NCBI GenBank assembly: GCA_051294375.1
Contig: JBJCIZ010000028.1
Span: 1,032,100 to 1,096,099 of the forward strand
Direction: 5' to 3'
DNA from: Paraspadella gotoi
Taxonomy: Eukaryota > Animalia > Chaetognatha
DNA: 64,000 nt
This document shows positions 1 to 61,344 of this stretch, piece by piece. A model generated the notes under the pieces. It was not told the origin of the DNA, did no database searches, and saw nothing but the letters and a program-made list of their open reading frames with translations. Within the stretch, counting starts at the first letter, position 1. Each line of letters starts with the position of its first letter. Position numbers and translations under genes: made by a program.

Positions 1-3388
<3,388 letters not shown>

Positions 3389-3842: not shown

Positions 3843-3892
<50 letters not shown>

Positions 3893-10364: not shown

Positions 10365-10571
10365 GACGTCGTCCCTCACTTTTTCCCCCCTACGCCCCCC
10401 TCGATTTTATTCGCCCCCCAAAAGGTTTTTTTTTTTTCATTTATGACCATTATTAAAAAGATTACGGTCCCCCCCTTGTGGGGAGATTATTCCTTCGTTT
10501 TAGGATGTTAATCCATTAAGCCAAACTTCTTTAATCGACATCTCTTCGTGCCAGTCATTCGCATTTGTGTC

Positions 10572-10658
<87 letters not shown>

Positions 10659-12561: not shown

Positions 12562-12645
<84 letters not shown>

Positions 12646-24800: not shown

Positions 24801-27800
24801 ATCACCCCCTTTGGCCGGCTCAGATGTGGTTTCAGACCCCCCCCTTTTTTTCCTTCGGATCTGGACGCGAGTGCGCTTCCGGCGCCGAAGTACCTCGGTC
24901 GTCGACTTCGCTGTCCGGACTCCGCCTCACGCACAGAGGATCGCTTCAGGCTCGTCACTCTGGAGGTTTTTTAGGCGGTGCCACAACTCTCCGACAGTCG
25001 ACGACTCCTTCTCCGGTCACCGTCGACGGCTGGAATGGAGGCTCTACACAGAGGAGCACTACGCCAGAGCTTGGAATGCTCCTTCTGCGAACTTCCCTTC
25101 AGGATGGAGAGGTCGAGGATCTCAAGCCTCTCGGAGGATGTCTACGATCTCTCCTTTTCTATGTGCGAGAAGGCCTCGTCGTAGACAACCACGACTCAAC
25201 CAACACAGATCGGCCCATCTCAGTTCTCTTTCCCCCCTGCACCGATGACGGCGACCGATTGGAGAGCTTCTTTGGACTCCGGCGCCTTCTCAAAGGGACG
25301 TTTTCGAGAGGACGCCCCTCCCTCACGTCGGACTTTCCCCACGTGAATGCGGCCATCCGGTTTACGCCATTTCTCGACCGGCGCCACTCTCCGGTCGCGC
25401 CGGAGGATCTTCTACGACGCTCGCCCTTCTCGTCGCTTTAGGTCAGCTCGTCGCCCTTCCAGCAGATCGTCTCTCTTCGTCGCGACGCGGGCTAATCCTT
25501 TCCTTAGCGGCAAGATCAGTATTCGTCTGGTTCCATCAGACGCTCTCGAAGACGGACAGGGTCGGACCACAATGGGGTCCGCGTTCCGGCTCGATCGGCT
25601 GCCGCTCTCAGATCGATGCCGGTTTAGGCGCTGCGCCAATTGGCTTCTTCTTCCGTCGCGGATTGGCGCCCGCCGCACGATTTTCTTTTTGCGCCCGCGC
25701 CGCTTTTCGCCATCTCTCGACGCAGCGTTTTCGCCTCCCTCTCCAAGGAGCTCTCTTGGAGGCGGAACGTTTCCGCGTCCTCCAGGGGTCCGAGCGCGCT
25801 ATGGCGGTCTGGACGTCTTTGCCCGCGCGGAGTGGATCTTGGCGTCATCCTTCGCGCGGGAGATTGGTCTGGCCGCGCAGACCTTCTTCCTTTCTACTGC
25901 AGCGGACGTCGCGTGGGGCGCCCCTCCGGTTCTTCTAGGACTTTGAGAGCGATTCGATTCTCCGCGGCATGAGGGAGAGGCCGGCTTGGGATTGCCGGCT
26001 CCCATGGTCACGGCCGGTCACGTTGACGGCTTCCCACTGGATTTTTTTATTTCATCTATCGATGTTATTTGTTCGTTTTCTTACTCTGATAAACGCGCGA
26101 TCTATCAGACTAGCCGCGAACAAAAGGGCATTTTCGTGGCGAGGCGCGACCCGATATAGAATTAGGATCCATAAAAGGACATTAAAAATTTTTTAAATCC
26201 AATTTAACTTTTTTGATGGTTCTGATTGACGCATTAAAAAGTAATTGAAAAAACTATAAACTACTAACTTTCAAAAATTTTTTATGGTTTTCTTGCGTCA
26301 AAATTTAAGAAAAAGTAATAAAAATTATCGAAACAATGATGATGATGAATGATGATTATACAAATAGTTTTTTCAATTTTTCACCACTTTATGATTCAAA
26401 CCTGAATCTGATCTTAAAAAAAAAAAATCTAAAAATTTTTTAGCCTTCCCTATTATAAATATAAAACTATTAAAAAAATTAATATATGGAGTAATATTAA
26501 AATTTTTTGTCTATTCAATTTTTAAAAAAAAATTCTAAATTTTCGTTTGAGCACCTGGGTGCTTAATTCAAATTTCTTAACCACCTTACTGAATTAGGCT
26601 CCCCCTACCTTTAGTAAACACAGGACGGGACAAATTACCTCTTGTTATTTGCAAGTTTCAGAACAGACCGCCACTACAGGTGGGTTAGACGTCCCGTCCC
26701 GCTTACGAGCATTGACACTAATGGGGCCCCGAGACCGCTTGGTGGGAAGAGAAGAATTCTCGCTCTTAGCGGGTGGCGAAAGTGAATGTGGGGGGGGGGG
26801 TTTGATGATTAACTTTACCGATGAACCCTTTTTTTTTCTCTCAGACTAAAGATTCCATTCATTATTCGAGCACAAAATCTGAGCGAGAGAGAAATCAAAC
26901 TCATCGCCAGCCCTTGGTCGCCGCCCGATTGGATGAAGTCCAACGGCCATTGCTCCGGTGAGGAGAAAGCCTTCGTTCTTTATTCTCTTTTGGTTCATTC
27001 ATATAATATTTTTTTAGTTTATTTATTTATTCAATTGTTCCTTCTTTTATTTATTCATTCGATGATACATTAAATATTTTCATTAATTCATTCAAATTTT
27101 TATAATTTTTTTTTTCATTTATAAATCCACTCATTACTTTCCGCATTCATTATTTCTAATCTTCATTCATTCATTTCCCCCCCCCCCAAGGCTACGGGCG
27201 CATCAAGGGCGACCCCGACAGCCTCGGCGACGAGGGTCGCTACTACAAGAGTTGGGCCAAGTACTTCGTCCGCTTCCTCGAAGAGTACGATCGAAGGAAC
27301 GTCTCCTTCTGGGGAATCACGGCGCAGAACGAACCCACCGACGGATACATTCCATTCTTTAGGTTGGTTGAAGACGACGACGACGACGACACGCGGGTCG
27401 CCGATGACACGATTAACAACGCAACTGTTTTTAGTTCACAACTTCTCACAGATATGAGCATGACAGAATATATTTTTTTTGCCTCTGTGATTGATTGAAT
27501 GTCTGACCTTTTTAACTTCCACAATCATTTCACCATTATAGTACGTATACTACTGGAGCTTCTAATTTAAAGACTCTTTTTTGGAGGACGGCGAGGACGG
27601 CCTACATGGTGACAATTTTACAAGCGCCGGTAAAAAAGCGCTGTCATTTGCAAACCAGTGGTTATTTCACTGATTTTAAAATTTAGTTGAGTAGAAAATA
27701 TTAAAGTCATTTATGTGTTCAAATTTTATATTGATCAGTTAAGATATGCCTTGGCAATGAGTGGAGAAAGTTGGCTTGTCAAATCGGGTTTCATTTTCCA

Positions 27801-30800
27801 ACTCACTGTTTTTAGATTCAATTTTCAACCAGGGCTGGGCAGCTTAATTTTTATGTTAGAGCTTTTGTAAGTATATCATTCTCTTCATTTTATTAAGGGC
27901 TTTCTGAGGATATTAATATTGTAAATATCTTAATAAATACTTTATTTAAAAAAGTGCTAAAAGTCGAAAAAAGAATTGAATTTAAAAACAGTGAGTTGGA
28001 AAATGAAACCAGATTTTACAAGCCAACTTTCTCCACTCATTGTCAAGGTATATCTTAACTGATCAATATAAAATTTGAACACATAAATGACTTTAATATT
28101 TTCTACTCAACTAATTTTTAAAATCAATGAAATAACCGGCGCTTGTAAAATTGTATTGCCGCCGTTTGAACCGGCGTTCCTGTCCCAGTCTGGTTGTTTA
28201 ATTTTCTCTTTATCTGCTCTCTACTCTCTTGCTCAAATGCCGCACTTCGGAACAAGTCGATCATCGAATCGTTATCCGATATTGCGTTTTCATATTATAC
28301 AATATTCTATAATCAATATAAATTTGGTATAAAAATTCGTCTCATCTTCGAGGTTGTTTTACTTAGCTAATCCCAAATTGTTACCCTCCCACCTATCCTC
28401 TCCAAACGGCCACATCTCTCCCCCTTTCCCCCCTTCCCCCTCTTTTCCCCCTTTCCCCCCCCCTCTCCCCCTTTTTCCCCCTTTCCCCTTTTCCCCCTCT
28501 CCCCTTTCCCCCTTTCTCCCCCTTTCCCCCCTCTACCCCTTTCCCCCCTCTCCCCCCTTTCCCCCTTTCCCCTTCCCCCCCTCTTTCCCCCCTTCGTCCC
28601 CCGCAGCTCCGGCCCCGGCCTCGCCAGCCTTTCCCCCCTCCACGCCTTTCCCCATCTCCACCCCTTTCCCTCCCCCTGCATATCCCCTCCCCCCTTTCTC
28701 CCCTCTAGTCCCCTCTGCCCCCCCTCTCCACCTCTTCCTCTCCCCCTCTCCCCTCTCTCGCACCCCCCTCCTTCCGCCCCCTCTGCACTCCCTCCCTCCT
28801 CCCCTTTCACGCCCCCCCCCCTACTCGCCCCTCTCACTCCCTTATCGTCACCCTCCTCGCCCTTCCCCCTTCCACCCCTCTGCATCCCGCTTCTCCCCCC
28901 TACTCCGCTCTCTCCCCTGTATCCCTCCGCCTGCTCCCCCCTTTCTCGCCTCCCCCCTTTCCTCTTTCGCCCTTCTTCCCCCATTTCCTCCCCTACTAGC
29001 CCCCTGGGTTTCACCGCTGTCCCCCTTCCCCCCTCTCTCCCCCTTTTCCCCTCTCCCCTCTCCCCCTCTTCCCCCTTCCCCTCCCCCTTTTCCCCCCCAC
29101 TCCCCTCCCCCCCACAAACAGCTTCAACTGCCTCGGCTTCACCGCCACCGAACACGCGACTTCATCAAGCGCATCTCGGGCGACCTCGCAGCCTCCGCCT
29201 TCCGTCCTCGTCTCATGATCCTGGACGACAACCGGTTCGTCGGCCGAATCCTGGGTCGACGTCGTCTTGGGGGACGAGGAGGCGGCGCGGTTCGTCCACG
29301 GAACAGCGATCACTTGTAGCTGGGTGGGGGGGGTAGGTCGGTGAGGGTAGCGGGGTGGTGGGGGGGGTAGGTCGGTGGTGAGGGGGGTAGGGTTTAGGGT
29401 GGAGTGGGAGAACTTAACTCGTTTTTCGTCTTTCCTTCTATGAAATTGGTTTAATCAATATATTTTATATTATATTTTTCTTTAAATTACTTTTTAATCC
29501 TTTTTTTTTATTCCTTTTCACTACAGCCGCACCTTCATTTTTGATGATTCCTTTTTTCTCCTTTCTTTTCTATCCATTTTTTTTTATTCGCCTTTCTCTT
29601 CTTTTCCTTCCTTTTTCTATTTTTTCCCAAAGCCTCCTTTTTACCTCACTCTCCTAAATCATCTCCAATGCCTCTCATCCAATGTTAAAATCAACCAATG
29701 AGCCTCTAACGATCCCACTTTTCTTTCCTCCAGGTATTGGAACATCCTGTCCTCGGCCTCCGTCACGACTCGCATCCACGATCGCTTCCCGTCCAAGTTC
29801 ATCCTGGCGACGGAAGCCTGCGACGGTTGGACGCCGCTTGAGCACGACGTCTGGCTGGGGGATTGGTCCAGGGCGCAGGACTACGCCGTCTCTATAATCG
29901 AGGATCTCAACAATTGGGTTCGTCTAAAAGGGGGGGGTTGTTGTTCATTGTGACTGTTATTGATTGTGAATTGTTGTTTTTTTTTTCTCTCTTTTGTCGT
30001 CGATCACATTTTGTGACAAATATTAATCAAGTCAAGTGAAGAAAAGCATCATAGAAGCATTTTATATAGCTTTAAATTTGATTTGCATATCGCAACAATT
30101 TGGTTAGAAAATTTAATCTTTTAAAAGAGACTTTGTTATTCGACCGGTTGCTCATTCTTTCCCCTTTCCCCCGGAATATCTTCCCTCCCCCCTTCCCAAT
30201 CTCTACCCCAATCAGGTGACGGGTTGGACGGATTGGAACCTCGCTCTCGACCTTAACGGGGGACCCAACTGGGCGGAGAACTTTGTCGACGCCGCGATTA
30301 TCGTCAACGCGGAGAAAGTAAGGAGAGAGAGAGAGAGAGATGAATGGGGGTATTGGGGACTCAACGAGGTGGATAACTTCAAAGGAGAAGGTTGGGGGGA
30401 GATAGAGAGAGGGAAGGGAACAGGGTTGTTAAAAAGTCCGGCCCAGTGGGTTATTTTTTTTTTAATATTATTTTTTAAAAAATTGTGTTACAAGTTTTGA
30501 TAGTGTTTTTATAGCTTTTACTTATTTTCACAGTTTAGTTGTCAATGTTAGCGAGTCAGATTTGTAATACACCTATTACACATCAGGGAAAAAGTTTGTG
30601 ATAATTTGAAATAGTTTGTGATCAGACCAGATCATAAAACAATCAGATTCATAATTTACGACAACAATGCCTTTTGGAAGTGGCAGAAAGAAAGGTTCAG
30701 AGTTGGCAAATGTAATCACTAAAAGTTAACTGTGGTCTTTTTGATGAAACGAGCAGTAATAAAATTGTAAGAATTCGAATGCATTTGCAGAAGTGCAAAG

Positions 30801-38681: not shown

Positions 38682-39448
38682 AACATGTTTGAGCAAACAA
38701 TGTCGGATCTGTCTTCGATAATTTAGCAGTAATAAGCTAAACAGATAATAATCAATCATGATTATTTTTTGTGATCTTTAAGTCAATCAATAAGTCAAAG
38801 AACCTGTGGCTGCGCCAATAAAAGTAAATCGTTTTTGACGGATTAGACTGAACTGTTACTGCAGCACTTTTAATATTTTATAATTTAAAAAAATATTTTA
38901 TCAATAAAAAAAATAATTTAATATTTTGTTCATTATTTTTATTTACATAATATTTTTAATTGCATAATTTTTTTAACTTGTTTTAACTTGTTCCACCAAC
39001 AATTTATATCCAGCTTAATCACATACTTTCCTACCCACACACAAAATTCCACTTCAATATATCTATCCAATTATGAATAAATTTAATAATTATGAGTAAA
39101 TATAAGTAAAAATGCCTCAAGTAAATATGACTTTTGTTTTTTCCATTTAAACTCATTTCCACTTGAATGATTCAATCGAAACTTTATTTCCAGCTCAATC
39201 ACACACTTTCCTACCCCCACACAAAATTTCATTTCAATCCATCGATCCAATCACAAGTAATTGGAATTTAATGAAAAGGTGGGATGGACAGACGGACGGA
39301 CATAATTTTTTTGACATGATTTAAGTGAGTGCCCAACAAGATTTAGGGGGGTACCGACGGACCGACAGTGGTCTCTCTCACTTCGGACTCTACAATCCGA
39401 AGTGGATTATAGAGTCGGAATCTGCTGATAAGCAGATCCGACTAAAAA
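38682..39448 (-). mobile_element. DINE-1/HINE-like non-autonomous Helentron, family 1
   Basis: Minus strand: 5' subTIR GTCGGATCTGC with adjacent inverted copy (hairpin 39413-39443), GTCC/GTCT microsatellite, central AAACTCATTTCCACT repeats, 3' CAGATCCGAC plus TGTTTGCTCAAACA stem-loop. Confidence 0.7.
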
Positions 39449-43910: not shown

Positions 43911-44505
43911 TAGAGCATAGTGAAAGTTACGTACGAAAATTCTAAAAGTCAATTATGAACAACATACCATCAGTGAACATTAATTTGTAAAAAAAATTAA
44001 TTTTATGTTTTTTAATTTTCGCAGTAAGCTATATTTATATATAGTACTATCCTTATAAAATCAAAAAAATTAAAAATAGGCTTTTCTTAATTTTGATTGC
44101 AGATTTGAATTCCTCGTCAAAAGTTGATAAAAGAAAATATAAATCATTTTTAAAATTCTTTCATTAACTAGGTTAAAAATTTAAAAAACTATATTTAATA
44201 TATAAAAATTAATTTTCAGCTTAAAATATAGCTTTTTCTAATTTTTGACCCACTTAATGAAGGAATTTTTCAAAAAGAGTTATATTTCTTTTATTAACTT
44301 TTTATGACGAATCCAAATCTGCAAAAAAATCTTAGAAAAAACTGTTTTGAAATTTTAACATTTATTGGATTAAATATGGCCTACTGCGTAAATTGTAAAA
44401 TTTATTAGAAATTTTTTTATACATAAATTTTCATTAGTATAATATTGTTCGTTCCTCACTTTTAGAATTTTAATTAAAGTTAAATTTAGAAATTTTACTA
44501 CGCCT
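43911..44505. mobile_element. MITE-like element; inverted copy at ~49543-49857
   Basis: Termini AG(A)GC(A/G)TAGT ... ACTACGCCT; 49678-49857 is the reverse complement of ~43911-44090 and 49543-49577 matches the right end. Confidence 0.65.
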
Positions 44506-44859: not shown

Positions 44860-47800
44860 ATGATACGGGGTCTCAAAAAATTTCTTTTTCGAAACATAAA
44901 CCAAAAACTTATCGTCATTAATGTCACCGGTGAGTAAAACTAAAAGAGGAGTTTTGATGAAATTAAGTTTAGTTCCTAAAATAGTTTTATCTGCAGTTGG
45001 GCTAATTTACTTGACATTTGATACTTTTATGGGAGGAGATTACGAGAAGGCACAGCAAATCGAAGACGCTTTAATATACAAAAATATACAGTTAAGAGGT
45101 AAAATATATTACAACACACTAAAATGTAACTACAAATATGCATTTGGCAACTCTTGAATGAAGAAAAAAATGAATGGTGGTCATTAGTTTAAAAATTTAT
45201 AATACAAATAACAAATATTTTTTAATATGTCACTGATTTTATCATTGTATATCTGATTTCATTCCTCTTCAGATGAAATCATTGATACTTCCCAGACAGA
45301 AATTATACAAACTAATTCAACAAACGCTTCGGTTGAAATGATGACTGAATCACGTTTAACTATGACGACGACGACGATTAGGACGACGACGACGACGATT
45401 AGTTCGACGACGACGACGACTACGACTACAAATATCGAGACGCCAAGGAAAACTTGCGAAATAAGTTCCGACCTTGGTAAGATTTTAAAATATTTACTTT
45501 TACAGCGTGTCAAATGAATACAATGAATCCGAACAATAATAAAAAATTCATTTACTGTACTCCTTGCATACATTTTTTACAATATGAAAAAGTTTGTTGT
45601 CCTTTAACAACCAAATTGAATCTTAAGTTATGATGTTAGATTTTGATTAAATTAATTTTCCTCATGCATGGAAGCATTTTAATATTTAACAATATATAAG
45701 AAATTCTTAAAAATTATTTTAAGAAAGTAAAGGAGTTTTTATCGTCGCAATCGCTTTGGGTTTGCGACGATATTGTTGTTGTGCACAATAGTGGCGTCGT
45801 CGTTGTCGTCGTCGTTGGCGTTCCAAATTATAGATCGCCTTTTTTATGATTAAATTTGGGTATATGAAGCTGAAAATTTATATACAGCTTCTCATCATCG
45901 ATGTCCTTAAATTTGAGTCAGGACAGTTATTAAATATGTTTTGTTTACGTTTTATCAAAACAAACAAATTTTCTCTCTTTTATTTTTATATTTCTTTCTC
46001 TCTCTCTTTTCTCTTTTAATTATATGTCTCTCTCCCTCTCTCTTTTCCCTAGTCACTGATTCATAGGGAAAAAGAACGAGTCTGCAGCTGGCTCTGCAGG
46101 GGCTTATTCTGTTTCTCTCTTTTCTCCTGCTGCATCTGCTGCTGCCTTTTGAGTCTGCAGCTGGCTCTGCAGGGGCTCTCTCTTTTTCTCTTTTCTCGTG
46201 CTGCTTCTGCTGCTGCCTTTTGATTTCTTTCTTTTTTTCTGGGTGACTCTGCTGCTGCCGATGCTAATTCGTCCGAAAACGATTTGGCTTCTCTCTCTCT
46301 CTCTCCTCTCTCTCTTTCTCTCTCTCTCTTTCTTTTTATTTCTCAGGGGCTGCGTCTGCTGATCAGTTTATTTTTTTCCTTTCTATTCCTTCTTTCCTTT
46401 CTATTCTTTCTTTATATTTATTCATTTTATGGTGGACTAAAATCCACCAACCGTTCTTCAGTGGCCATTGGTGCCAGAGGCAAGTCATTCTCCTTCCAAC
46501 CCAAAGGTCCGGGGTTCAAGCCCAGTGGTCACCTAGCAGTTTAGTGGGACGGGGCGCTGTCTCTTCAATTTCTTCTTTTTCTTTCTGTTTATAAATTAAT
46601 TTTCTTTTCTCAAATTAGATTTTTTTAGTATCAAAATTTGTCATCAATCCAGATTTTTCTTATGCGATTGCTTTTAAGATTTTTTTTTTCTCTCTCTCTC
46701 TTCGTTTTTATTAAAAAAAAATTTTAATTAGGATTGAACTCGTAAAATTAGGCAACGCATTCGTGCTCGTTATCATTTTGCTATCGCAACATCAGGTCTT
46801 TATTTCGTTTTTTTTTCTCAGGGGCTGCGTCTGCTGATCAGTTTATTTTTTGACAATGACAAAAAAAAACAAAAAAAACTTTCATTGTTTTTTGTTGTTT
46901 TTTTTCAGAAACTGTAACTTTAATTTTCCTCGGTACTTTATTATTTTTTTTAATTGACAATCACAAAATAGATTTTTTCTTTCTGTGTATAAATTAATTT
47001 TCTTTTCTCAAATTTTTTCTCAAATTTGTTGTCAATCCAGATTTTTCTTATGCGATTGCGACAATCCTTATGCTTTTAAGATTTTTTTTATATTTTGAAC
47101 AACGAAACACAAACAACCACAAGTTTTAAGAAATTAAAATTTTTAAAAATAGATTTTGATAAAGATTAAAAAGTTAGATAAAGGTTAGTACTACAAAAAT
47201 TTTAATGATAAATGGGCTTAGATTTGAAAAAAAACTTTAAAAAAAATCATCATCATCATTCATTAAATTTTATAGTTTTTGTTATTTTTCATAGCTAAAT
47301 CATTAAAATTTCCAAAAGTTATAATCTAACTTTTCAAGCTTTATCAGAATTAAAATTTCTTAAAAAAATGTTTTTGATATTATATAGTATTCGGATAATA
47401 TAAAATAGCTTCCACGCATTTAACTAACTATAAGATAAATCTTAAATTTGTTTTGATTTTCACAATCTTCAATAAGCACTTTAAGTGATTAACAATATTT
47501 ATACCGTTAGTTTGTAACCTGTTCCGCCTTACTGTGCAGTGTGCTTGTGATGATGTTTGAAGATCATCTCTATTCTCATCCATATACATTATACAACACT
47601 TGCTTAATTGTTTGTTTAATGTTCTTTGTTAAACTGTAAATCAAATTGGCAAATTAAAAAAAAATTTTCGAGTTATTTTTTTAAAATAAAAAAAACTTTT
47701 GTACGTCGCACAGTAATCTCATAATAAAAATAAATCTTCTTTGAAAGTCATCTGTGTACCTGGGTGGTCGTGGTATTCCTCCCACACGGGATTCCTCCCA

Positions 47801-50800
47801 ACTGGATTCCTCTTACATGGGATTCTTCCCACGCTGGATTCCTCCCCATGGGATTCCTCCCCGCGAAATTCCTCCCACGTGGGATTCCTCCCCAAGGATG
47901 GTCGTGGTATTCCTCCCACACGGGATTTCTCCCAACTGGATTCCACCCACACGGGTTTCCTCCCCATGGAATTCCTCCCACACGGGTTTCTTCCCACATG
48001 AGATTCCTCCCCATATAATTCCTCCCATACAGGATTCCTCCCACACAGGATTCCTTCCAAAATGGGATTCCTCCCATGTAGGATTCCTACCATGGGGGAT
48101 TCCTCCCAACCGAGATTCTTTCCACACAGGATTCCTCCCACGCAAGATTCCTCCCACGCAGTGTGGGAGGAATCCTACATGGGAGGAATTCCGTGTGGGA
48201 GGAATCCCGTGGAATGAATCCCGAGTGGAAGGAATTTTGTGTGGGAGGAATACTGTGTGGGAGGAATCCCATGTGGGAGGAATCCTGCATGGGAGGAATC
48301 CCGCGTGGGAGGAATCCCGCATGGGAGGAATCCCGACTGGGGGGAATCCTGCGTGGGAGGAAATCCATGGGGAGGAATCCCGTGTGGGAGGAATCCCGTG
48401 TGGGCGGAATTCTTTTGGGAGGAATTCCATGTGGAGGAATTCCTTGGAAGAATCCCGTGTGGGAGCAATTCCATGGAGAGGAATCCCTTGGGGAGGAATC
48501 CTGTGAGGGAGGAATCCCACGTGGGAGGAATCCTGCATGGGTGGAATCCCGTTGGGAGGAATCCCACTGGAACCGTGTACCTGTACTCCCATGTGAATTT
48601 TTTTATCTAAAAATAAATCTCTTAATAAAAAAAAATTTTGTTTGTCAGGCCCGATGTGGCTTCGCTCAGGCTTCCCAGATTTGCGATCCTGGCAAAACCA
48701 TTTAAAAAACAAATCCGCTGATAATAATTTTACGCAATTATTGAGGTAAAACAAGAATCTTAAAGTTTCAATGACTTTTTTAAATACCCTTTTTGATTTG
48801 TGACAGATTGTACTCTCCGAGTGGAGGATCTTGGAAACCTAAAAATTGCATAGCCGCAGGCAAAGTTGCTATAATCGTTCCATTCAGGTAAAAAAAGTCA
48901 GCAAGAAAAACATAGAAAATAGTAAAAAAAAATCTTTAAAGAATAGGATCGAGCCTCCCTTCAATGATAACCAAATATTGATGCGATGATAACCAAAGGA
49001 TTGATGCGATGATAACCAAATGATGCGATGATAACCAAATATTGATGCGATGATAACCAATAATTGATGCGATGATAACCAAATGATCGATGAGATGATA
49101 ACCAAATGATTGATGTGATAATAACCAAATGGTTGATGCGATGATAGTCATTCATTGATGTGATGATAATCATTCATTGATACGATGATAGTCATTCATT
49201 GATGCGATGATAGTCATTCATTGATGCAATAAATCATTCATCATAAATAAAACAAATAAATGCGTGTATAAGTGAAAGAGAGAGAGAGAGAAAGAAAGAG
49301 AGAGAAAAAGAGAATAAATCCACGAAAATCTGGGATGTAAATTTGGGATTTTGCATTGAGAAAAAATCGCGGAATAAATGGCAATAAAGTTTTTAAAAGG
49401 AAAAAATAATCAATTTTTTAAAAAAAACGATCACACAAGAGATCGTACAGAGAGAGAGAGAGACAGAAAGAGAAAGACAGACAGAGACAAGAGAGAAAGC
49501 TGGACAGCCGCTGGAAAACAGCTGAACAATCACTGCAGAGTAAGGCGTAGTAAAATTTCTAAATTTAACTTTAATTNNNNNNNNNNNNNNNNNNNNNNNN
49601 NNNNNNNNNNNNNNNNNNNNNNNNNNNNNNNNNNNNNNNNNNNNNNNNNNNNNNNNNNNNNNNNNNNNNNNNNNNNNTAAGAAAAGCTTATTTTGAAATT
49701 TTTCGATTTTATAAGATAGTACTATATATAATATAGCCTACTGCGAAAATTAAAAAAAACATAAAATTAATTTTTTTTACAAATTAATATTCACTGATGG
49801 TATGTTGTTCATAATTAACTTTTAGAATTTTCGTATGTAACTTTCACTACGCCTCTACTGCAGAGCCTGAACTCGTTTTTAAAAGGTTCAGAAAGGCAGC
49901 AACTGACAAAAATAGGAAGAAAATCTATATATAATTTAAAGAAATAAAAGAAAGGAAAAAATGTTACAATTGTTTACAATTGGAAATTTTTACAATTTTT
50001 TCCAATCATAGCTTGTAAAAGATTTTATTTTTATTTGTATCAAAATTAAGATATAGCTTCTCATAAAAAGGTATTTGATTTCCCTGTTTATTAAAGATTT
50101 TTAAAAAAATTATGAATTTCATCTGCAATATTATATACTGCAATATGTAAATTAGATTAAAGCATTTTTATATACTAATTTGGATATTATAATGAGTACT
50201 ATAATCTGCATATTGCCAGTAAATCAATAATGAAGTGGAAATTCAAACAAAAAATACTTGAATCCAAAAGTAATATGAAAAATTTCAGAGCTATTTCAAG
50301 ATGAGAAGCCATATCTAAATTTGTAACTTACTATGATCGCACACTTTTATAAAACTTCATTGTAATTTATAATAATTTTTATTTAAAAACAAACGGTAAG
50401 TCCCAGCCAAAACTATAAAAGCGTAGTAGTTTTTATATAAAAATGCGTAACGCCGCCGACGACGACGACGACGTCCCAAGAAGCTGAACCGGCTTCTCCG
50501 GTAGGCTCGATAAAAATGCTACAATTGTTTTTGTTTATAGCAATCATTTTTAATTTTTTGCCAATCCAATTTTTCAGAGATTTAAAGCGGCCTCACGACT
50601 AATTAGTAATTAGTAATTACCTAAGCAGGCTTAAACATCATCCAAATCGGTGTCTTTCAATTGAGTTAGCAAAGCCAGACAGTATTATATAGCATAACCG
50701 GGCCGGTAGTAAGAGACCGGCACTGGAGATACTAATGCCCTCCTCACGAGCATCACAAACAAACTAATCTGCTTGCTGTTATTACTGTTTATACTGAAAC

Positions 50801-51095: not shown

Positions 51096-54076
51096 TTTTA
51101 TGCAATTGCGACGATCCTTATGCTTTTAGGATTTTTTTAACTTGTATCATTTTTTCCACTTGCATCATTTTTTCAACTTGCATAATTTTTTTAAATTGCA
51201 TCATTTTTTCACATTAATTAATTAATTAATTAAAACATTTATTAGTAATCATAAACTAGTAATCATAAATAATAAAGATTCAAGTAAATGTGACTTATGT
51301 TTTTTCCATTTAAACTCATCTCCACTGTCACAATTCCGTCAAAACTTTATATCTAGCTTCTTCACACACTTTCCTACCCGCTCACAAAATTTCATCTCAA
51401 TCTATTATGGGTTAAAATAAGTAAAAAGATTCAAGTAAATGCGACTCATATTTTTTTCATTTAAACTCATTTCCACTCGTACGTTTCCACCGAAACTTTA
51501 TAGCAAGCATCGTAACACATTTTTCTACCCACACAAAAAAATTGAACTCAATCTGAATTTAGTGATGACCCTGAATGAGAGTGGTGTTGTTTGTAAGAAA
51601 GTAAATTAGTATATGGTAAAAGGCTTGCTGCATGGTCTGGCTGATGCATCATTTTTTATTTTATTGCAAGTTAAACTAGTGTTAAACTTATAATAAAACT
51701 TATTAACTACAGTTCAAGTTTATTATACTATAGTTTAAACAAAATGATTGATTAGTTCAGAACAAATCAATCAAAACCTTCTTTCTTAAGTCAAACACAA
51801 AAAAGGGAAAAAATTGAGGAAAAAACTGTATGAACCTAGTTTGATTGAATCTTAATATAAAAAAAGTAATAATTATGAGTAAATGAAAAAAAACTGGCAG
51901 GTTTAGTCTTATGTCGTATTTTATGGAAGAATTTCCAAAGTACAATAGAAAAATATGAAGCAAATTATGTACAATGAGCATTTAATTTGTGTTCACTTAT
52001 TTATAAAGGTTTGATATAAAAGAAAACAAGTTTTATTCAGCATTAACAACGATTTTATTAATAATAAAGGTTTCGACTCTAGCTTTTATGAGTCTTCTTT
52101 AGCGTTTGACTCAACAGATTTCGGTTTCACAAAGATTCCCTTCCAACAAAGAATTGAAGAAAAGATAGTGGTCAGAAATGAGGATCGGTTGAGGTGAGAA
52201 TAGGGAAGAAGATAGAGTGAATAAATTTGAAACTAGTAAAAGAGATAGAGATAGAGAGAAAGTGAGAGGGAAAAATTATTATATTAAGCAATATACAACA
52301 AAGATAGATTTAAATTAAGCAAACTTAATTTTAAACTAAAGAAATAATAATAATAAAGGTAAATAAGTTAGATAATGAGATGTAAGTAAAAATGAAATAG
52401 AAAAATAAGTGGTTAGGGAAGGATAAGATAATAGTAAGGGAAAATAAGTAAAGAAAAGAGCTCAAAATTGCCAAATGTAGTGATTTTTCCCTCTCTCTCT
52501 TACCAGTTTCAAAATTTATTCACTCTCTCTCCTTCCCTATCCTCACCTTCTCTTGTCTTCCCATCTATCTTTTCTTAATTCTTTGTTGGAAACTTTCTTT
52601 CTCTCTCTCTCTCTCTCTCACCAACTCAATGTTTGTGAAACCAAAATCTGTAGAGTCAAACCGCTGATGAAGACTCGAAAAAGCAAGAGTCAAAATATAT
52701 CCGACCTTATTGTTGATAAAATTGTTATTGCTAATTAATTCATTTTTTCCATTAAATAAAAAAAATAATGAAAAAAAAGATTAAACACAACGTTTTGACT
52801 ATATTAACCTTGTATGCATTTAATAGTACCTCACCACTTTTTAAAATATTGACTATTTTAAAAGATAGTCATATGATTAAATTTTTATATAATCACCTGC
52901 CAGCACACCTATAACATTTCATAATACATATTATCCAACATTCCTATCAAATATTATTTAAAATTATGTAGCATAAAACGAGTTATGAACATTTAAAATT
53001 TAAGTCAGATAGACTGACAGAACGACAAACCTACCCACCAACTTAGAAAATAATGATTTGAAATTGCTCCCCCAAGCACTCGCACCCAGCTAAAAAGTTT
53101 ACTGATAACTTTATCTAATAACTAACATCTAATAACTTTAAAATAAATATTTTAAATTCCATTTCTCAAGCTTCAATTTTTGGCAAAAATAAGGATTGAC
53201 TATTACTTGGAAGCTTTGGAGAGTTCCTTTCCGATCAAGTTTTTAGGGTTTAGACAGTTTTAATGTCTTTTAAAGACCAAAAAGAACCTATTAAAATGAG
53301 TCATGAAATTTCATATTTAAGCCATAAAGAGCTCAAAAATTCTAAAAAGTTATGAAGAATATAATTATAAATTTTAATCATTTTTTATTTTCTTTTAGTT
53401 TTTAAAGTTTAATATTGTGTATTTTGATTTTATTTTCAGGAAGTACTGCTAAATATTATTTTTTTAATATTTATTCTTCACAAAATTTAGGAATAACTTT
53501 AGTAAGTATTTTATCAAAAAACTAATGATCATCTTTATATTTTATATTATATAATATTATATTATTAATAAAATTTATTAAAAATAAAGGTTTAATAAAA
53601 ATATAAAGTCTACATCAAAAATATATTTCAAAATCAAATCAAGTATTGATTTAATCATTATTTTATTTAAAAAATCCTTTAAATTAATTTCACATATAAG
53701 ATTACGATCAAAGAAAAACCGCAAAAGTACTCGATCACTTGGAAACTCTGGAGAGTTCCTTTCCGGTCAAGTTTTTTCAGGTTTATCAGTCCCAATGTCT
53801 TCTACAGACAAAAAGAACCTAATAAAATGAGTCGTGACCCTTCATCTAGTGTAATTGAAAATTTGGGTAACTCTATTGATCAATTAAGATAATTTGGTCA
53901 ACCGGCATAATTTGGTCAACTGGCATAATTTTATCAACTGGCCTAATTTGGTCAACTGCATAATTTGGTCAACAGGCATAATTTGGTCAACTTGCAGAAC
54001 TTGATCAACTTGCAGAATTTGGTCAACTGGCATAATTTGGTCAACTGGTATATTTTTGTCAATTGGCATAATTAGG

Positions 54077-54107
<31 letters not shown>

Positions 54108-57100
54108 GAGAGAGATAGAGAGAGAGAAACTTTAAAAAATTCAAATAAATGTCTTTTGGTTTTCTAATTTGAACTCTTTTCCACTCCTACGATTCCATCA
54201 AAAAATTTATATCTAGCTTTATCACATACTTTCCTACCCACACACAAAATTCAATTTCGATTTATCTATCCAATTTTTAATAAACATAATAATTATGAGT
54301 AAATTTAAGTAAAAATACTTCAAGTAAATATGACTTTTGTTTTTTTCTATTTTAACTCATTTCCACTCGCACGATTCCATCGAAACTTTATATCCAGCTC
54401 AATCACACACTTTCCTACCATCATCAAAATTTCAAGTCAATTGCCCTATCCACTCATGAGCAATTGGCGTTCAAATAGTAAAATATATTTTTTTGTTTTT
54501 TCCATTTAAACCAATTTCCACTCGCACGATTCCTCGAAACTTCATATCCATCTCAATCACACAGTTTCCTACCCACACACAAAATTTCATTCCAATCCAT
54601 CCATCCAATCACGAGTAATTGGAGTTTTTTGCTAAGGTGGGACGGACGGACGGACGGACGGACGGACGGACAGACAGACGGACGGACATCGTTTTTTTGC
54701 ATAATTAATCATAATTCGATGTTTTGACATGATATAAGTGTGTGCCCGACAATATTGAGGGGCGGACCGATGGACCGACAAAGTGAATTANNNNNNNNNN
54801 NNNNNNNNNNNNNNNTCCATCCAATTATGATTAATTAGAGTACTTCATGGTTAAAATAAGTAAAAATATTTTAGTAAATGCGACTTATGTTTTTCCACTT
54901 AAACTCATTTCCACTCACACGATTCCGTCGAAACTTTATATCCAGCTTTATCACACACTTTCCTACCCACACACAAAATTTCATTCCAATCCAACCAGCC
55001 AATCACGAGTTATTGGATCTTTTTGCTAGGTGGGACGGATGGACGGATTGATTGACTGATTAAGTAATTATTAATAATTAATTGACTAATTGATTAATTA
55101 ACTGATTAATAATTTGATTTATTAATACATCCTTAATATAAAAGGAAAAGAATCATAATCAATTAGTGAAAAGGTTTTTGTTTTTTTCTATTTAAACTCA
55201 TTCCACTCAAAAGATTCATCGAAACTTGATTTCCTGTTCAATCACACACTTTTCTACTCACAAAAATTCAGGTCAATCTATAATTAAGTGGTAATAAGCT
55301 AACTTGGTCAACTTGCATAATTTGGTCAACTGATATAATTTGGTAAACTGACATAACTTGCGTTAAACTGACATAATTTGGTCAACTGACATAATTTGGT
55401 TAACTGGACATAATTTGTCAACTGACATAATTTGATCAATAGAGTTACCCAAATTTTTAATTACACCCGATGAAGGGTCACGACTCATTTTATTAGGTTC
55501 TTTTTTGTCTGTAGAAGACATTGGGACTGATAAACCTGAAAAAACTTGACCGGAAAGGAACTCTCCAGAGTTTCCAAGTGATCGAGTACTTTTGCGGGTT
55601 TTTCTTGATCGTAATCTTATATGTGAAATTAATATAAAGGATTTTTTAAATAAAATAATGATTTAATCAATACTTGATTGGTTTTTAAATATATTTTTGC
55701 TGTAGACTTTATATTTTTTATTAAACCTTTTATTTTTAATAAATTTTATTAATAATATAATATTATATAATATAAAAATATAAAGATGATTATTAGATTT
55801 TTGATAAAATACTTACTAAAAGTTATTCCTAAATTTTTGAAGAATAAATATTAAAAAAAATAATATTTAGCAGTACTTACTAAAATAAAATCAAAATACA
55901 CAATATTAAACTTTAAAAACTAAAAAAAAAATGGTTAAAATTAGTAAATATCAAAAGTGTTTGGAAAATGGCCCAATTATTACTTTTTGCCATGAGTAAA
56001 TTGTTTTCTCCAAGAAATTGTAAACTTTTATTGTTTTTATAACAGATTCAAATCTAAAACAGTATTTCATAAAAAATTAAAGTAAAAATTTTGAATCTAC
56101 TTGGTCTTGCCTTTTATTAGATTGCTAGATTGCATATATTATTGATCAAGTAATGTTTTTTGTAATATGTATCAAACATAATAAACTAAGGGAAAATATT
56201 ATATTTAATTAGTATGGCATTAGTATAGATTTATAAATGGCCAAAATAAATAGGAAGTATATGTAAAAATTTATCCTGGAAATAGTTAGGCAAACAAAAC
56301 TTTTCTTCCTTCTGTTTAGATATTTTGACTCTTTGTGTGGAAATTTAGTGATGACCCTGAATGAGAGTGTGTTGTTTGTAAGAAAGTAAATTAGTATATG
56401 GTAAAAGGCTTGCTGCATGGTCTGGCTGATGCATCATTTTTTATTTTATTGCAAGTCTAAACTAGTGTTAAACTTATAATAAAACTTATTAACTACAGTT
56501 CAAGTTTATTATACTATAGTTTAAACAGAATGATTGATTAGTTCAGAACAAATCAATCAAAACCTTCTTTCTTAAGTCAAACACAAAAAAGGGAAAAAAT
56601 GAGGAAAAAACTGTATGAACCTAGTTTGATTGAATCTTAATATAAAAAAAGTAATAATTATGAGTAAATGAAAAAAAACTGGCAGGTTTAGTCTTATGTC
56701 GTTTTTATGGAAGAATTTCCAAAGTACAATAGAAAAATATGAAGCAAATTATGTACAATGAGCATTTAATTTGTGTTCACTTATTTATAAAGGTTTGATA
56801 TAAAAGAAAACAAGTTTTATTCAGCATTAACAACGATTTTATTAATAATAAAGGTTTCGACTCTAGCTTTTATGAGTCTTCTTTAGCGGTTTGACTCAAC
56901 AGATTTCGGTTTCACAAAGATTCCCTTCCAACAAAGAATTGAAGAAAAGATAGTGGTCAGAAATGAGGATCGGTTGAGGTGAGAATAGGGAAGAAGATAG
57001 AGTGAATAAATTTGAAACTAGTAAAAGAGATAGAGATAGAGAGAAAGTGAGAGGGAAAAATTATTATATTAAGCAATATACAACAAAGATAGATTTAAAT

Positions 57101-57857
57101 TAAGCAAACTTAATTTTAAACTAAAGAAATAATAATAATAAAGGTAAATAAGTTAGATAATGAGATGTAAGTAAAAATGAAAATAGAAAAATAAGTGGTT
57201 AGGGAAGGATAAGATAATAGTAAGGGAAATAAAGTAAAGAAAAGAGCTCAAAATTGCCAAATGTAGTGATTTTTCCCTCTCTCTCTTACCAGTTTTCAAA
57301 ATTTATTCACTCTCTCTCCTTCCCTATCCTCACCTTCTCTTGTCTTCCCATCATCCTTTTCTTAATTCTTTGTTGGAAACTCTTCTTTCTCTCTCTCTCT
57401 CTCTCTCACCAACTCAATGTTTGTGAAACCAAAATCTGTAGAGTCAAACCGCTGATGAAGACTCGAAAAAGCAAGAGTCAAAATATATCCGACCTTTATT
57501 GTTGATAAAATTGTTATTGCTAATTAATTCATTTTCCATTAAATAAAAAAATATAATCTCTCTCTTTTTAGAGTCGGGATCTGCTGATAAGCAGATCCGA
57601 CTAATAACCATGAAAAATTCAAAATAAAACGCATTTAATTTATTCAAAAGTTATGGTTCAAAGCTTAAATATGACAAGCCTGGAAAAAAGTGGTAGCTTT
57701 GACTAATTCTTTCCTCCCATAATTCCACTCAGAGAACGGGAACAAAATCTGTATATTTTCCTCAAATTTCTTCATCCTCTTCTACAACGACAACAACTTG
57801 ACTATCAAATTTTTGTTGTCGAACAAAGCGGAGACAAAGCAAAGCCATTTAACAAAG
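44860..57857 (+). CDS. Beta-1,4-galactosyl/N-acetylgalactosaminyltransferase (GT7, bre-4-like), 5' six exons; gene continues beyond
   Basis: Phase-consistent exons 44860-44929, 44997-45098, 45273-45476, 48649-48745, 48807-48887, 57733-57857: type II membrane anchor, Thr-rich stem, CEISSDLGPM, GGSWKPKNCIAAGKVAIIVPFR-EREQNLYIFLKFLHPLLQRQQLDYQIFVVEQSGDKAKPFNK. Missed by the ORF track. Confidence 0.9.
45736..47089 (+). mobile_element. DINE-1/HINE-like family 2 copy with duplicated 3' end and nested tRNA-head insert
   Basis: ATCGTCGCAATCGCTTTGGGTTTGCGACGAT 5' hairpin, near-identity to 36734-37379, 3' block repeated (~46580-46685 and ~46980-47089). Confidence 0.65.
46431..46558 (+). mobile_element. 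tRNA-head fragment of the twister family ending at the predicted cleavage site
   Basis: GGTGGA..TCCACC hairpin, A box TGGTGCCAGAGG (46469-46480), B box GGTTCAAGCCC (46513-46523), then TAGCAG TTTA GTGG GA CGG GGCGCT; absent from the paralogous HINE at 36734. Confidence 0.55.
47755..48585. repeat. Foldback array of ~15-nt GGATTCCTCCCACAC units inverted about ~48160
   Basis: Left half (GGATTCCTCCCAYAC)n, right half (GTGTGGGAGGAATCC)n; accounts for the repetitive ORFs at 47719-48754. Confidence 0.85.
48960..49230 (+). repeat. ~20-nt minisatellite (ATGATAACCAAATATTGATGCG); reverse-complement array at ~62120-62360
   Basis: Direct inspection of units and of the CATCAATGAATGACTATCATCG array at 62120-62360. 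Confidence 0.75.
51556..57550 (+). repeat. ~1.2-kb direct duplication (51556-52765 vs 56342-57550)
   Basis: Both start AATTTAGTGATGACCCTGAATGAGAGT and are near-identical, including the inverted hammerhead-like pair. Confidence 0.8.
53395..55925. mobile_element. Element with ~490-bp inverted arms enclosing an 18-nt minisatellite, interrupted by HINE repeats
   Basis: 53395-53885 is the reverse complement of ~55432-55925; CATAATTTGGTCAACTGG arrays at 53886-54080 and 55300-55435 are in the same orientation. Confidence 0.7.
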
Positions 57858-58968
57858 GTATGTATCAGTCTTTTAAATTAACATTTTCAACAATAATTTT
57901 AAGATCTGACTGTATTTCGTATACATTATACAAGGTGGCACACGACAACTAGCTGCTAGAAAAAAATCGTCATTTGCAAACTTTTGAAGATTTTTTTAAT
58001 CTGAAAGATTCTTTCTGTAGTAAAAACCAAAATCATAAATATATTTAAATTTTATATTGACTATTATTTTGATTTGACTTGGCAATGAGCGGAGAAAAGT
58101 TTCTTTCAAAATCGAATTTCATTTTAAAACTTTTTTTTCTTCAATCTGTTTTAAATTAAAAAAAATACTTAAAAAGGTATCAATATTACTATTAAAAATA
58201 CTGTAATATAAAAATAAGCCTATCCAGCTTTATATCAAAAAAGGTATTCAAAACTAAGATAATTATTGCAAACAATATCGGATCTGCCCACGATCATTAG
58301 CGGTAATTAATTAATTAATACAAACTATATAAACTAAAATAATAATTTAATTAATAAATTAATTAATTTGATCCGAAATGTTTGTTTTTAGGTCTTTTGA
58401 TCACTGACCACGATAAAAGCAACAACGACGATGATGGCGACGACGACAATAATGCCGATAACGATTGACTTGATTGATTGATTAATTAATTAATTCATTT
58501 ATAAAAAAATTAATTGATTGGATAATTAATTAATCGATTAATTGACCAAGAAATTAATTAATTTATTAATTAACAGATTAATTAATTGATTAATTAATAC
58601 ATCTTTAATTTATATTTAATATAGAAAGAAAAAGAAGCATAATCAAATAGTTAATCAGGTTTTTTGTTTTTTTCATTTAAACTCATTTCCACTCAGATGA
58701 TTCCATCGAAACTTGATTTCCAGCTTAATCACACACTTTCACACACTTTTACCCACATACAAAATTTCAAGTCAATCGCCCCGTCCATTTAAACTCATTT
58801 CCACGTGCACGATTCCAAGCAAGGGTAAATCTTTCATTTGTCATTGGTGAGAGTTTGGTGGTCCTATCACCTCAGATGGATTAAAGCTGTTTCTTTCGCA
58901 GCGCCTCAGTGGCTCAGTGGACTAATGCACCATCCCAATGTGCGTCCCTGGTTCGAGCCCTGAGGTTG

Positions 58969-59049
58969 TCATGTAGAAAGTGGGATGGACCGGGTAACCC
59001 GCCTGTAGGCATAGGCCTACTGCCAGATCCAAAGCTCTGGACTACATGA
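58969..59049 (+). ncRNA. Type-P5 twister ribozyme, unit 1
   Basis: TCATGTAG(P5) AAA GTGG(P2') GA TGG ACCGGG TAA CCC(P2) GCC T GTAGGC-ATAG-GCCTAC(P3) TG CCAGA TCCAAAGC TCTGG(P4) A CTACATGA(P5'); T1 CCA/TGG, T2 GC/GC; predicted cleavage U58995/A58996. Confidence 0.8.
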
Positions 59050-59378
59050 ACATGCTGTCTTGCTGTCGCCACGAGGTGACACCGCTGCGGGTGATCCGAA
59101 CACGCAAACCGGGCATGATAATAGTCCTCTGCCCTTGATGTGGTTTGAGCTACGCAGCTGCCACTCAAAGCAAGGCCAACAGAATGAAGAGAGGTTCAGC
59201 GGAGAGACATGCGCTTCATCCCCTACTTCGTACTCTTATATGTGAGAGACCTGGGGGCGGCTGTCTGGTGGTCCTATCACCACAGATGGATTAAAGCTGT
59301 TTCTTTCGCAGCGCCTCAGTGGCTCAGTGGACTAATGCACCATCCCAATGTGCGTCCCTGGTTCGAGCCCTGAGGTTG

Positions 59379-59458
59379 TCATGTAGAAAGTGGGATGGAC
59401 CGGGTAACCCGCCTGTAGGCATGGGCCTACTGCAGATCCAAAGCTCTGGACTACATGA
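59379..59458 (+). ncRNA. Type-P5 twister ribozyme, unit 2
   Basis: Same as unit 1 except a P3 loop change and one C missing from P4; predicted cleavage U59405/A59406. Confidence 0.75.
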
Positions 59459-61344
59459 ACATGCTGTCTCGCTGTCGCCACGAGGTGACACCGCTGCGGG
59501 TGTGGCGCCCTGTAAAACCAGCCTCTTTAAGGGTCAGTTTTGTTAAATTCCAACTTTTATTGCTTTACACTATTATAAAGCCTATACCCAAAAATTATTG
59601 TTTTGGCTCAATCTGTGTCTTTCTTTTTATTTGTTTTCATTGTGTAATTTTTCTCTCTTTTCGTTGTTCAATAAGATAGCAGATTCGATAACGAAAGTTT
59701 TAGTATTTTTTTACAACGATTTTATTTACAAAATATTGGACATGTTTCGACTCTTGTTTTTCGAGTCTTGTTTTCAGAAAAAAATTTTATTCCTGTTAAA
59801 TCTTTTACAACATGATAACTTAAAAAATATGGCAAAAAATATCCTCTTTGTACTTGCAAATACAATTATGTCAAAATTATACTGTGGGAATGAATAAACG
59901 AGATTGTGAAAGAGTCTTGATTGAATGCTTGCAAGGAACTTCTCTGTCATTATTTTGCACACCGTGGCGAAAAAAAAGTAGCCACTTTCACATAAAAAAA
60001 ACGTATTGAATAGCTGAATTTTACAAAGATATAGAAACATAAAATAAATCTTATTGAAAGATGAAGCGATTGGTCCAAGTCCCAGTAAAATCGAGCGGAG
60101 CGTTCGAAAGTTATAGGACGACAAAGTCGATTGGTACAAAAATCGAGAAAGAAGACAGAATAGAGGCTCACCCTACCGCCTCTCTCCCCACCGGGCTTTC
60201 TTTTTCCCCCCCTCAACGTCTCTTCCTTCTTCTCCCTTCGTCTTCCCCTTCTCTTCATCCCCGAGTCAAGGATCGGGTCTTGGAGATCGGCCTCACTCTC
60301 GTCTTACGATCTCGCGGTCCTCAAGCCTTCCTTCTTCCCTCTCCCCTTTTATGTAACCTTATTCCCTTTCCCTTTTACCAATATACATCCTCACCTTACT
60401 TACCTCTTTTTCCGGACGAAAGCATAATCAGATCCTTACCATAGATAGATACATACCTTCAGAGGAAGAATTAGTTTTTGTCAAAAATGTTAAAATGTTT
60501 ATAATATGAAATTGGCTGAACAAATTCAGCATAGAATATCTCTAGGGATAGATTTTAATTATTTTTTACCTAAAGCAAATTAAAATAAGTAAGGAAACTA
60601 TATAAAAAAAAATTAGTCACAAAAATAAGTATCATCAACTTAACCTCCAAATAGGGCTGCGCATCGTTCGAATCGAAGTTCCGATCAAGATTCCTTTAAA
60701 TTTCACTTCTATTCAAAACTGCATAGTCACGGCCCAAAAAAATTATATCAATATGGGCAGATTTTGAAAGCTTGGCGTCTTGGGAAGCCAACGGAGGTAG
60801 AGCGCGATCGAAATTCCCATTTTATCATGCCCAAAAATGGTATTTAAATTGACTGGTCAGGCCGTTTTTTCCCTTTTACCAAAAAACCTGCTTGATCTTT
60901 TGTAAAATAGAACAAATCATACATATCCGTACGGTTTCGGATAGCTTATTGTCTTCTCTATAAGATAAAAAAAAGAAAAGTTTAAACTCTTGCAATCTTG
61001 AATGCTTGATAAAGCAATTAAATGAACTGCTTTTTTAAGTGAAAACTGCATAGTCAAGCCTTCATATTTTTTTTGTTTTAAAACCATCGAAAGAAACTAT
61101 ATTGTTTTTACTATCTGTTTCAGGTAGAGCGCGGAGCTAAATTTAGTCTATTTATATTAAATTTCATGCAAATACGAATGAAGTCCGTATATCGCACGGT
61201 AAAGTCGTTTTTAAGCGCAATCCGGGCCGTATTTAAAACTTGTTATAGAGGTTATCTAATGAGGATTTCGATCAAAAAAAAGGATTGATCATGCGCGATC
61301 CGGGCTGGATTAAAACCGCTTTTCAACATGGCTTTACCGTATTT

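Follow-up and report, generated by a model that had tools for sequence, protein, structure and literature searches.

A multi-copy tandem unit with a tRNA-like head and a permuted twister-like fold in the chaetognath Paraspadella gotoi

In the Sm-alpha short interspersed elements (SINEs) of Schistosoma, self-cleavage leaves the RNA polymerase III (Pol III) promoter at the 3′ end of the cut monomers, so that tandems are needed, and the hammerheads of Penelope-like elements (PLEs) act as dimers through a palindromic helix (PMC6765202). Animal retrozymes without long terminal repeats (non-LTR retrozymes) carry type I hammerheads, yield circles of 170-400 nt on northern blots (PMC7229834; bioRxiv 10.64898/2026.07.22.740005), and are now tied to the pseudo-LTRs of PLEs (bioRxiv 10.64898/2026.07.22.740005). 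Twister ribozymes have been reported at the 5′ ends of RTE retrotransposons (PMC8501958; PMC7761336) and in viroid-like circular RNAs (PMC8216279; bioRxiv 2022.07.19.500677), and their permutations are covered in PMC10085705. Neither "twister" nor "tRNA" occurs in the accessible part of bioRxiv 10.64898/2026.07.22.740005, and the accessible part of PMC7229834 mentions twister for engineered constructs only. A tRNA head followed by a ribozyme is a layout expected to destroy a SINE by removing its promoter; with a ribozyme there, as Kojima noted, the SINE would be truncated (PMC5786205). Here we describe an element with this layout in a 64,000-nt stretch of the Paraspadella gotoi genome (assembly GCA_051294375.1, contig JBJCIZ010000028.1, positions 1,032,100 to 1,096,099, forward strand; hereafter the window), which a first-pass annotation, made from the letters alone, had proposed as a candidate tRNA-headed twister retrozyme, a kind not known to have been described. 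Our searches of the full-text literature, with most subscription papers outside their coverage, likewise found no tRNA-headed twister tandem element.

We determined the anatomy of the element, its insertion ends, the length of its family unit, and a palindrome in its linker. In our judgment there is an even chance that it is a multi-copy, non-coding unit of ~454 nt, with a tRNA-like A/B-box head and a P5-permuted twister fold, inserted as a partial tandem, and that it is probably a Pol III-transcribed parasite of Penelope-like retroelements whose ribozyme, predicted to be weak, would cut mainly as a swapped dimer.

The element forms a 680-bp insertion at 58850-59529 (+). We aligned contigs of a public sequencing run, X1, which contains 0.41 of the window words, with 58600-59750, covering the whole element. 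Since these contigs include both the flanking A+T-rich repeat, at a depth of 113,859, and an empty-site joint, we treated X1 as likely DNA and did not use it for expression. No RNA run was listed among the public runs matching window words, and the element lies outside what runs X2 and X3 cover. The empty-site joint (58849 to 59530, depth 62.6) has two letters that fit either side, and therefore the 680 bp were inserted without a real target duplication. The ends are ambiguous by these 2 nt (AG), and AGGGT is common to the 3′ end of the element and the target, counting element sequence to 59534. Just left of the insertion, at 58643-58830, lies one occurrence of a very abundant repeat with a period of ~150 bp (X1 depth up to 113,859), which is also present at 38991-39301, 51258-51554, and 54132-55284.

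The insertion contains only ~1.5 units. Its direct repeat (58853-59093 versus 59263-59502) is 97.9% identical over 241 columns, with four substitutions and one gap. The first-pass annotation had given an exact 410-bp period; we found 410 up to 59023 and 409 beyond it, the cause being a C missing from P4 of the second copy. TRF did not list the 410-bp repeat among the tandem repeats of the window. Two X1 joints (59534 to 59096, depth 226, with 15 intervening letters; 59534 to 59111, depth 17.5, with 30) both imply a unit of 454 nt; thus, the first unit in the window is short by ~45 nt and 410 is a local figure. The family unit is ~454 nt long, 54% GC, and non-coding. A further X1 contig (depth 210.6) spans 59155-59292, from the spacer into the next head, with 29 letters past the boundary where a formal bridge takes 31. 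In X1, the four parts of the unit (head, twister, body, and spacer) join up in a loop with a depth of ~210-230. The annotated likeness to Sm-alpha and retrozyme tandems is supported in architecture, in membership of a multi-copy family, and in this loop, and the 410-nt monomer predicted with it is wrong for the family, whose unit has ~454 nt.

Contig depth in X1 does not equal copy number, and we used it as a hint only. Summed over both copies, it is ~210-550 in the spacer and 1,200-2,100 in the leader, the head, and the 5′ half of the twister; from the 3′ half of the twister to 59535, it reaches 2,600-6,300. It peaks over 59458-59535 (~3,300-6,300), and only ~244 of 3,312 runs on into the window's spacer. 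At the 5′ boundary shared by two insertions, depth jumps from 218 to 1,389. These steps hint that many family copies begin around 59263 and stop around 59500-59535. The second of these insertions is an independent 75-bp fragment at 41028-40954 (-), which at 93% identity matches the leader and the front portion of the tRNA-like head; this fragment and the insertion copy share their starting point in the unit. Together with X1 variant contigs along the whole unit, it reveals a multi-copy, dispersed element.

The leader of copy 1 (58853-58902, +) starts at this shared boundary with a TGGTG/CACCA hairpin. The tRNA-like head (58903-58966, +) follows, with an A box at 58910-58920 and a B box at 58950-58960 enclosed by a 7-bp acceptor-like stem (58903-58909/58960-58966). 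In copy 2, leader and head occupy 59263-59376 (+), with the A box at 59320 and the B box at 59360. As annotated, both units carry the boxes, and in a search with the A/B-box consensus these were the only pairs 40 nt apart in the window; after shuffling, such a pair arose in 39 of 50,000 units and in 89 of 500 windows. Under relaxed settings (-ps80), ARAGORN called tRNA-Gly(CCC) at both heads, plus a doubtful tRNA on the minus strand. At its default threshold it found no tRNA at the element heads, and Rfam gave no tRNA match even at E ≤ 10. We infer transcription by Pol III. Because the unit contains no T4 run, Pol III would probably read through it; the first such run downstream, a possible stop, lies in flanking DNA at 59538-59541 (+). 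The absence of TTTT had already been remarked upon and is correct, but as evidence it is weak, as 39% of shuffled units are equally free of T4.

Directly behind each head lies a twister-like fold opened at P5 (copy 1, 58970-59048; copy 2, 59380-59457; both +). We built a descriptor from the Rfam P5 consensus and the Schistosoma table of PMC8501958, after the element sequence had been seen. Within the window it matched only at G58984/A58996 and G59394/A59406, that is, in two folds 410 nt apart in consecutive non-coding units. As controls, it recovered three of four Rfam-confirmed type-P5 twisters in phage contigs (L240, L244, L247, and L249) and none of nine other viral loci. Among shuffled controls, 22 of 1,351 windows and 15 of 228,733 units gave a match, as did 3 of 2,880 windows when P3 and P5 were also required.

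In copy 1, the stems are P5 (58970-58976/59042-59048), P3 (59005-59010/59015-59020), and P4 (59023-59027/59036-59040), with L4, UCCAAAGC, at 59028-59035. The core consists of P2′ GUGG (58980-58983), G58984-A58985, T1′ UGG (58986-58988), P2 CCC (58998-59000), and T2 GC (59001-59002). Hence the G-A, the NAA cut site, T2 (GC/GC), the AAGC of L4, the T1 pairing, and P4 are present in P5 order. As annotated, T1 reads CCA/UGG instead of CCC/GGG; this is a double compensatory change that preserves pairing. Cleavage is predicted at U58995/A58996, giving a new end at AACCCGCC, and at 59405/6 in copy 2, where G59394 is the catalytic position. The catalytic G, the AA, T2, L4, and the compensatory T1 are unbroken in both copies. 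X1 differences at ≥5% (one variant contig was partly read) leave G58984, A58996, A58997, G59001, and C59002 untouched; they affect the linker, U-1, and P3 or positions next to it. P5, P3, and P4 of copy 1 are each predicted to form with a probability ≥0.93, and the 87-mer containing the fold had a better energy than 200 of 200 shuffles (z -2.49). The P3-P4 sequence is close to that of the Schistosoma RTE (Perere-3) twisters in the available part of PMC8501958, with GCCUGUAG...ACUGCC in common. The first-pass statement that all twister core elements are present thus stands for the core and its P5 order and fails for two stems: the P1 hairpin is absent and P2 is only CCC against GUGG.

Motif searches elsewhere gave no relative among the matches listed. 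An exact 21-mer of the element occurred at 0 metagenome loci. A looser P3 pattern matched at least 119 loci, with none similar by blastn or by twister context among the matches listed, and a P5 pattern matched at least 120 prokaryote loci, of which four among the matches listed passed a loose filter and none was convincing by eye. A CCA/UGG pattern found one viral locus, which is not a twister, and UCCAAAGC and UAACCCGCC are absent from the Schistosoma T-variant supplement. No second ribozyme motif (hammerhead or hepatitis delta virus (HDV) L3) was found on either strand, and the insert lacks CUGANGA.

Behind the fold, copy 1 continues with hairpins (59049-59093, +) that end at the junction where ~45 nt of the family unit are missing. 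The non-coding spacer (59094-59262, +), an internal part of the unit, contains no hammerhead or HDV core motif. Within it, at 59147-59204, GAGCTACGC and AGGTTCAGCGGAG resemble motifs of RTE 5′ untranslated regions (UTRs) and of SINE2-1_EC in the same order, with a spacing of 44 versus 49 nt; the likeness was seen by eye and may be chance. The post-twister hairpins of copy 2 (59458-59502, +) have the highest X1 contig depth of the element. They are followed by a 32-nt 3′ extension (59503-59534, +), present at one end only and resembling a Penelope "tail", which would be the region where reverse transcription starts, by analogy with PMC11167929 and PMC8557442.

P2 is one of two defects of the fold. 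CCC against GUGG gives two Watson-Crick pairs plus a bulge or mismatch, and when pseudoknots are left out of the folding, P2 gains ~6 kcal/mol by slipping into a 5-bp register in which G58984 and the T2 bases are paired. The catalytic G is unpaired with a probability of 0.31 and 0.58 in the two copies, versus 0.71-1.0 in the four phage twisters. Since two X1 contigs that appear to span P2 (summed depth 879 of 1,073 at 59013) list no insertion there, the short P2 is seemingly the usual family form. A 3-bp P2 occurs naturally in the Rfam-confirmed twister L247. P1 is replaced by a 6-nt linker (58989-58994, +), too short for a hairpin. Without P1, and with a short P2 whose predicted slippage covers the catalytic G, a single copy is unlikely to cut efficiently in cis.

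The linker, ACCGGG, is centered on the palindrome CCGG, and a 4-bp duplex between two copies could serve as P1. Its self-duplex has a predicted energy of -8.1 kcal/mol, and a centered 4-nt palindrome is expected by chance in ~6% of cases. In an X1 variant (58990 C>T and 58994 G>T; one contig, depth 159.6) the linker is self-complementary at all six positions, allowing a 6-bp duplex that is weaker (-3.1); of 135 random double changes of the linker, nine would pair at all six. In a tandem transcript, the arrangement in which the two folds swap strands is predicted to gain ~10 kcal/mol over a pair of monomers, whichever P2 register is used, and to form with a probability of 0.7-1.0. This modeling is suggestive, though not proof, that a swapped-dimer ribozyme fits the element better than single-copy cutting.

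The ends of the insertion can be compared with PAc, a PLE of Anolis (PMC11167929, as far as the accessible text describes it). There, reverse transcription starts internally, 111-118 nt into the open reading frame (ORF); the hammerhead cut is at +26, which places the start ~85-92 nt past the cut, and two starts define an optional tail of 30-40 nt. Unprocessed RNA is the main substrate of PAc, and its ribozyme needs protein. In our element, the 3′ junction lies 124-129 nt beyond the predicted cut, and the repeat boundary at 59502 lies 97 nt beyond it. This 3′ end is internal, without poly(A) or a short-repeat tail; both twisters are uncut, and neither end of the insertion is at a cut site. The element has the A/B-box head of tRNA-derived SINEs and lacks their LINE-type 3′ tail (LINE, long interspersed element) and target-site duplication. 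The internal position of the 3′ end, 124-129 nt beyond the predicted cut, the 32-nt tail, and the lack of a real target duplication suggest mobilization of the Penelope type, which agrees with the one full insertion and with the X1 depth profile; by this comparison the ends appear to fit PLEs better than LINEs.

In the scenario we propose, Pol III would initiate at the head or shortly before it and continue past the unit. A helper protein with reverse transcriptase (RT) and GIY-YIG domains would bind the hairpins past the twister and start cDNA synthesis internally, ~97 or 124-129 nt past the cut, which would yield copies with fixed 3′ ends and the optional 32-nt tail. Solo transcripts, with no P1 and a slipped P2, would mostly stay uncut and so retain the promoter. 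In read-through tandem transcripts, the two folds could swap strands, with CCGG pairing to CCGG as P1; double cleavage would then release an RNA of one unit, its two ends side by side and open to circularization by a host ligase. The insertion in the window would have been copied into cDNA from a read-through RNA that had escaped cutting. We regard as possible, but tentative, the stronger version of this proposal, the first twister retrozyme, a parasite of PLEs with a tRNA promoter, in which the ribozyme acts as a copy-number switch, off in solo transcripts, which keep their promoter, and on in tandems through the P1 formed by the palindromic linker, releasing a 454-nt circular RNA.

Several observations weigh against our main interpretation. 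Rfam gave no twister match, either at the gathering threshold across the window or at E ≤ 10 in 58700-59700, where only three weak, unrelated matches appeared; the covariance-model check suggested in the first-pass annotation thus came out negative. As the Rfam P5 model (RF02684) expects an 8-bp P1 and a 4-bp P2 and has no P3, the missing P1 and added P3 explain this miss without turning it into support. The P2 register needed for catalysis had a probability of 0.0 in both monomer and swapped folds, at a cost of ~6 kcal/mol per copy (pseudoknots are outside the model), and the CCGG pairing between copies reached only 0.27-0.39. Equilibrium folding favors strand swapping more than co-transcriptional folding would, and copy 2 has a damaged P4, with one C lost. 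No helper (RT or GIY-YIG) was found among the 150 of 253 window ORFs searched. In the Naiad/Chlamys consensus file (supplement of PMC8557442), 53 matches to CCAAAGC or CCCAAGC showed no twister context by eye, with line breaks that may hide matches; other element motifs likewise showed none among the matches listed. The target is not (TA)n, unlike that of Naiads, and the 3′ end has 5 nt of microhomology, where PAc starts without homology. Finally, the shared 5′ boundary lies 47-50 nt upstream of the head, which a standard type-2 promoter does not explain.

In a first alternative, the twister would be a dead relic, carried by a Penelope-type or SINE-like parasite that spreads from uncut RNA. 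The slipped P2 that buries G58984 favors this, as do the two uncut twisters in the insertion and the position of its ends away from the cut sites. Moreover, in the accessible text of PMC11167929, hammerhead mutants had no effect on PAc insertion in vitro, and a tRNA-headed SINE should be truncated by a ribozyme in this position (PMC5786205). On the other hand, the catalytic G, AA, T2, L4, and compensatory T1 are kept in both copies, the ≥5% X1 differences spare the five core positions named above (again with one variant contig partly read), and the Rfam-confirmed L247 also has a P2 of only 3 bp. We consider this alternative rather unlikely.

Still less likely, in our view, is the model of the first-pass annotation with its size corrected, in which efficient cis cutting gives 454-nt circles and insertions arise by rolling reverse transcription. 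The permutation at P5 splits the ribozyme at the unit junction, so that it is whole only in tandem or circular forms; the unit closes into a loop in X1; and twisters lacking P1 can cut, inefficiently, with NAA sites tolerated (PMC8501958, accessible part). However, rolling reverse transcription of circles predicts random 5′ ends, and the two insertions share one 5′ boundary, at which X1 depth takes its step from 218 to 1,389. Spacer depth is far below that of head and twister, and P2 is predicted to slip.

It is improbable that the element is instead a bipartite, RTE-dependent SINE, made of a tRNA head and an RTE 5′ region that retained the RTE twister. The core is close to that of Perere-3, an RTE element, through the shared GCCUGUAG...ACUGCC; twisters are reported at RTE 5′ ends; SINEs that join a tRNA to an RTE 5′ UTR are common; and the few short motifs like those of SINE2-1_EC and RTE 5′ UTRs, seen by eye and unaligned, may be chance. 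RTE twisters, though, are P1-type and stand at the 5′ end of elements with target-site duplications and 3′ short repeats, whereas the fold here is P5-type, the duplication does not exceed 2 nt, no repeat tail is present, and the 3′ end is internal. Least probable, and largely refuted, is the idea that an ordinary SINE was duplicated locally in the DNA and resembles a twister by chance: only 1.5 units are present, Rfam and default ARAGORN gave no match, and the descriptor was written with the sequence in view, but shuffles reach descriptor, P3, and P5 in 0.1% of windows, the empty site lacks all 680 bp, and X1 contains the tandem junction again, joined by different letters. We also ruled out an LTR-retrozyme, as the insertion has neither TG...CA ends nor a 4-6-bp target-site duplication.

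Elsewhere in the window, the genes are split by introns and include WD40, choline kinase, short-chain dehydrogenase, and glucosylceramidase exons; for one dehydrogenase exon, named relatives from several phyla are only ~36-56% identical. A tandem cluster of short-chain (retinol) dehydrogenase genes occupies 8700-16200 and contains a 2-kb duplication (9614-11572/11601-13570, 96.6%) that borders an N gap and may be an assembly artifact. Within the glucosylceramidase gene region, a 5.4-kb G+C-rich stretch (20716-26163) has ~220-bp inverted repeats (85%) at its ends and gave no Pfam match in six frames read through stops. Other repeats are palindromic elements of ~500 bp resembling miniature inverted-repeat transposable elements (27643-28137 and 43936-44471), a 16-bp minisatellite arranged as a large inverted repeat (47770-48567), and a 1.2-kb direct repeat (51556-52769 and 56342-57557, 98.5%) with internal inverted arms that is likely a young non-autonomous DNA element.

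How the ~454-nt unit relates to known systems can be stated feature by feature, using the accessible parts of the cited papers. Like the Sm-alpha hammerhead SINEs, it has a Pol III-type promoter upstream of the predicted cut site, which would come to lie at the 3′ end of a cut monomer, with promoter and unit restored only through tandem copies (PMC6765202); it differs in having a P5 twister in place of the hammerhead, a palindromic linker in place of P1, Penelope-like ends, and a cleavage that is predicted only. With animal non-LTR retrozymes it shares a non-coding tandem unit, a permuted ribozyme, the lack of LTRs, primer-binding site, and target-site duplication, and a proposed PLE helper, while its 454-nt length, 54% GC content, A and B boxes, and lack of a type I hammerhead set it apart. 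The partial tandem, the internal 3′ end ~100-130 nt past the predicted cut, the 30-40-nt tail, the A+T-rich target, and a putative ribozyme with a palindromic helix recall PAc (PMC11167929) and Naiads (PMC8557442); unlike these, the element has no ORF, a tRNA-like promoter, a twister, and 5-nt 3′ microhomology, and does not lie in (TA)n. According to their description, published Naiads have no canonical hammerheads, and no twister is reported for them in the accessible part of PMC8557442. The G-A, NAA cut site, T1, T2, L4 AAGC, and P4 are features that the element shares with the type-P5 twister (RF02684) and the Perere-3 T-variants (PMC8501958). Compared with RF02684, the element lacks P1, has a short P2, and has a P3; compared with the T-variants, which are P1-type and stand at LINE 5′ ends, it is permuted, with a P3 close to the Schistosoma RTE form. 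Bipartite RTE-derived SINEs (PMC5786205) also place a retroelement-derived body behind a tRNA head, but usually omit the ribozyme-bearing LINE 5′ end and finish in the RTE 3′ tail, whereas our element keeps the ribozyme directly behind the head.

If our interpretation is correct, the element would be a natural dimer-dependent twister, and the role of ribozymes for Penelope-type elements would become directly testable, including in lineages reported to lack hammerheads. As animal retrozymes and Sm-alpha SINEs are defined by their hammerheads, a twister-based family would also show that the class of ribozyme is interchangeable in this life cycle. By this comparison, the element falls outside the formal retrozymes, having no hammerhead, and outside Rfam twister-P5, having no score and no P1; it would work in the manner of Sm-alpha and the retrozymes, with another ribozyme.

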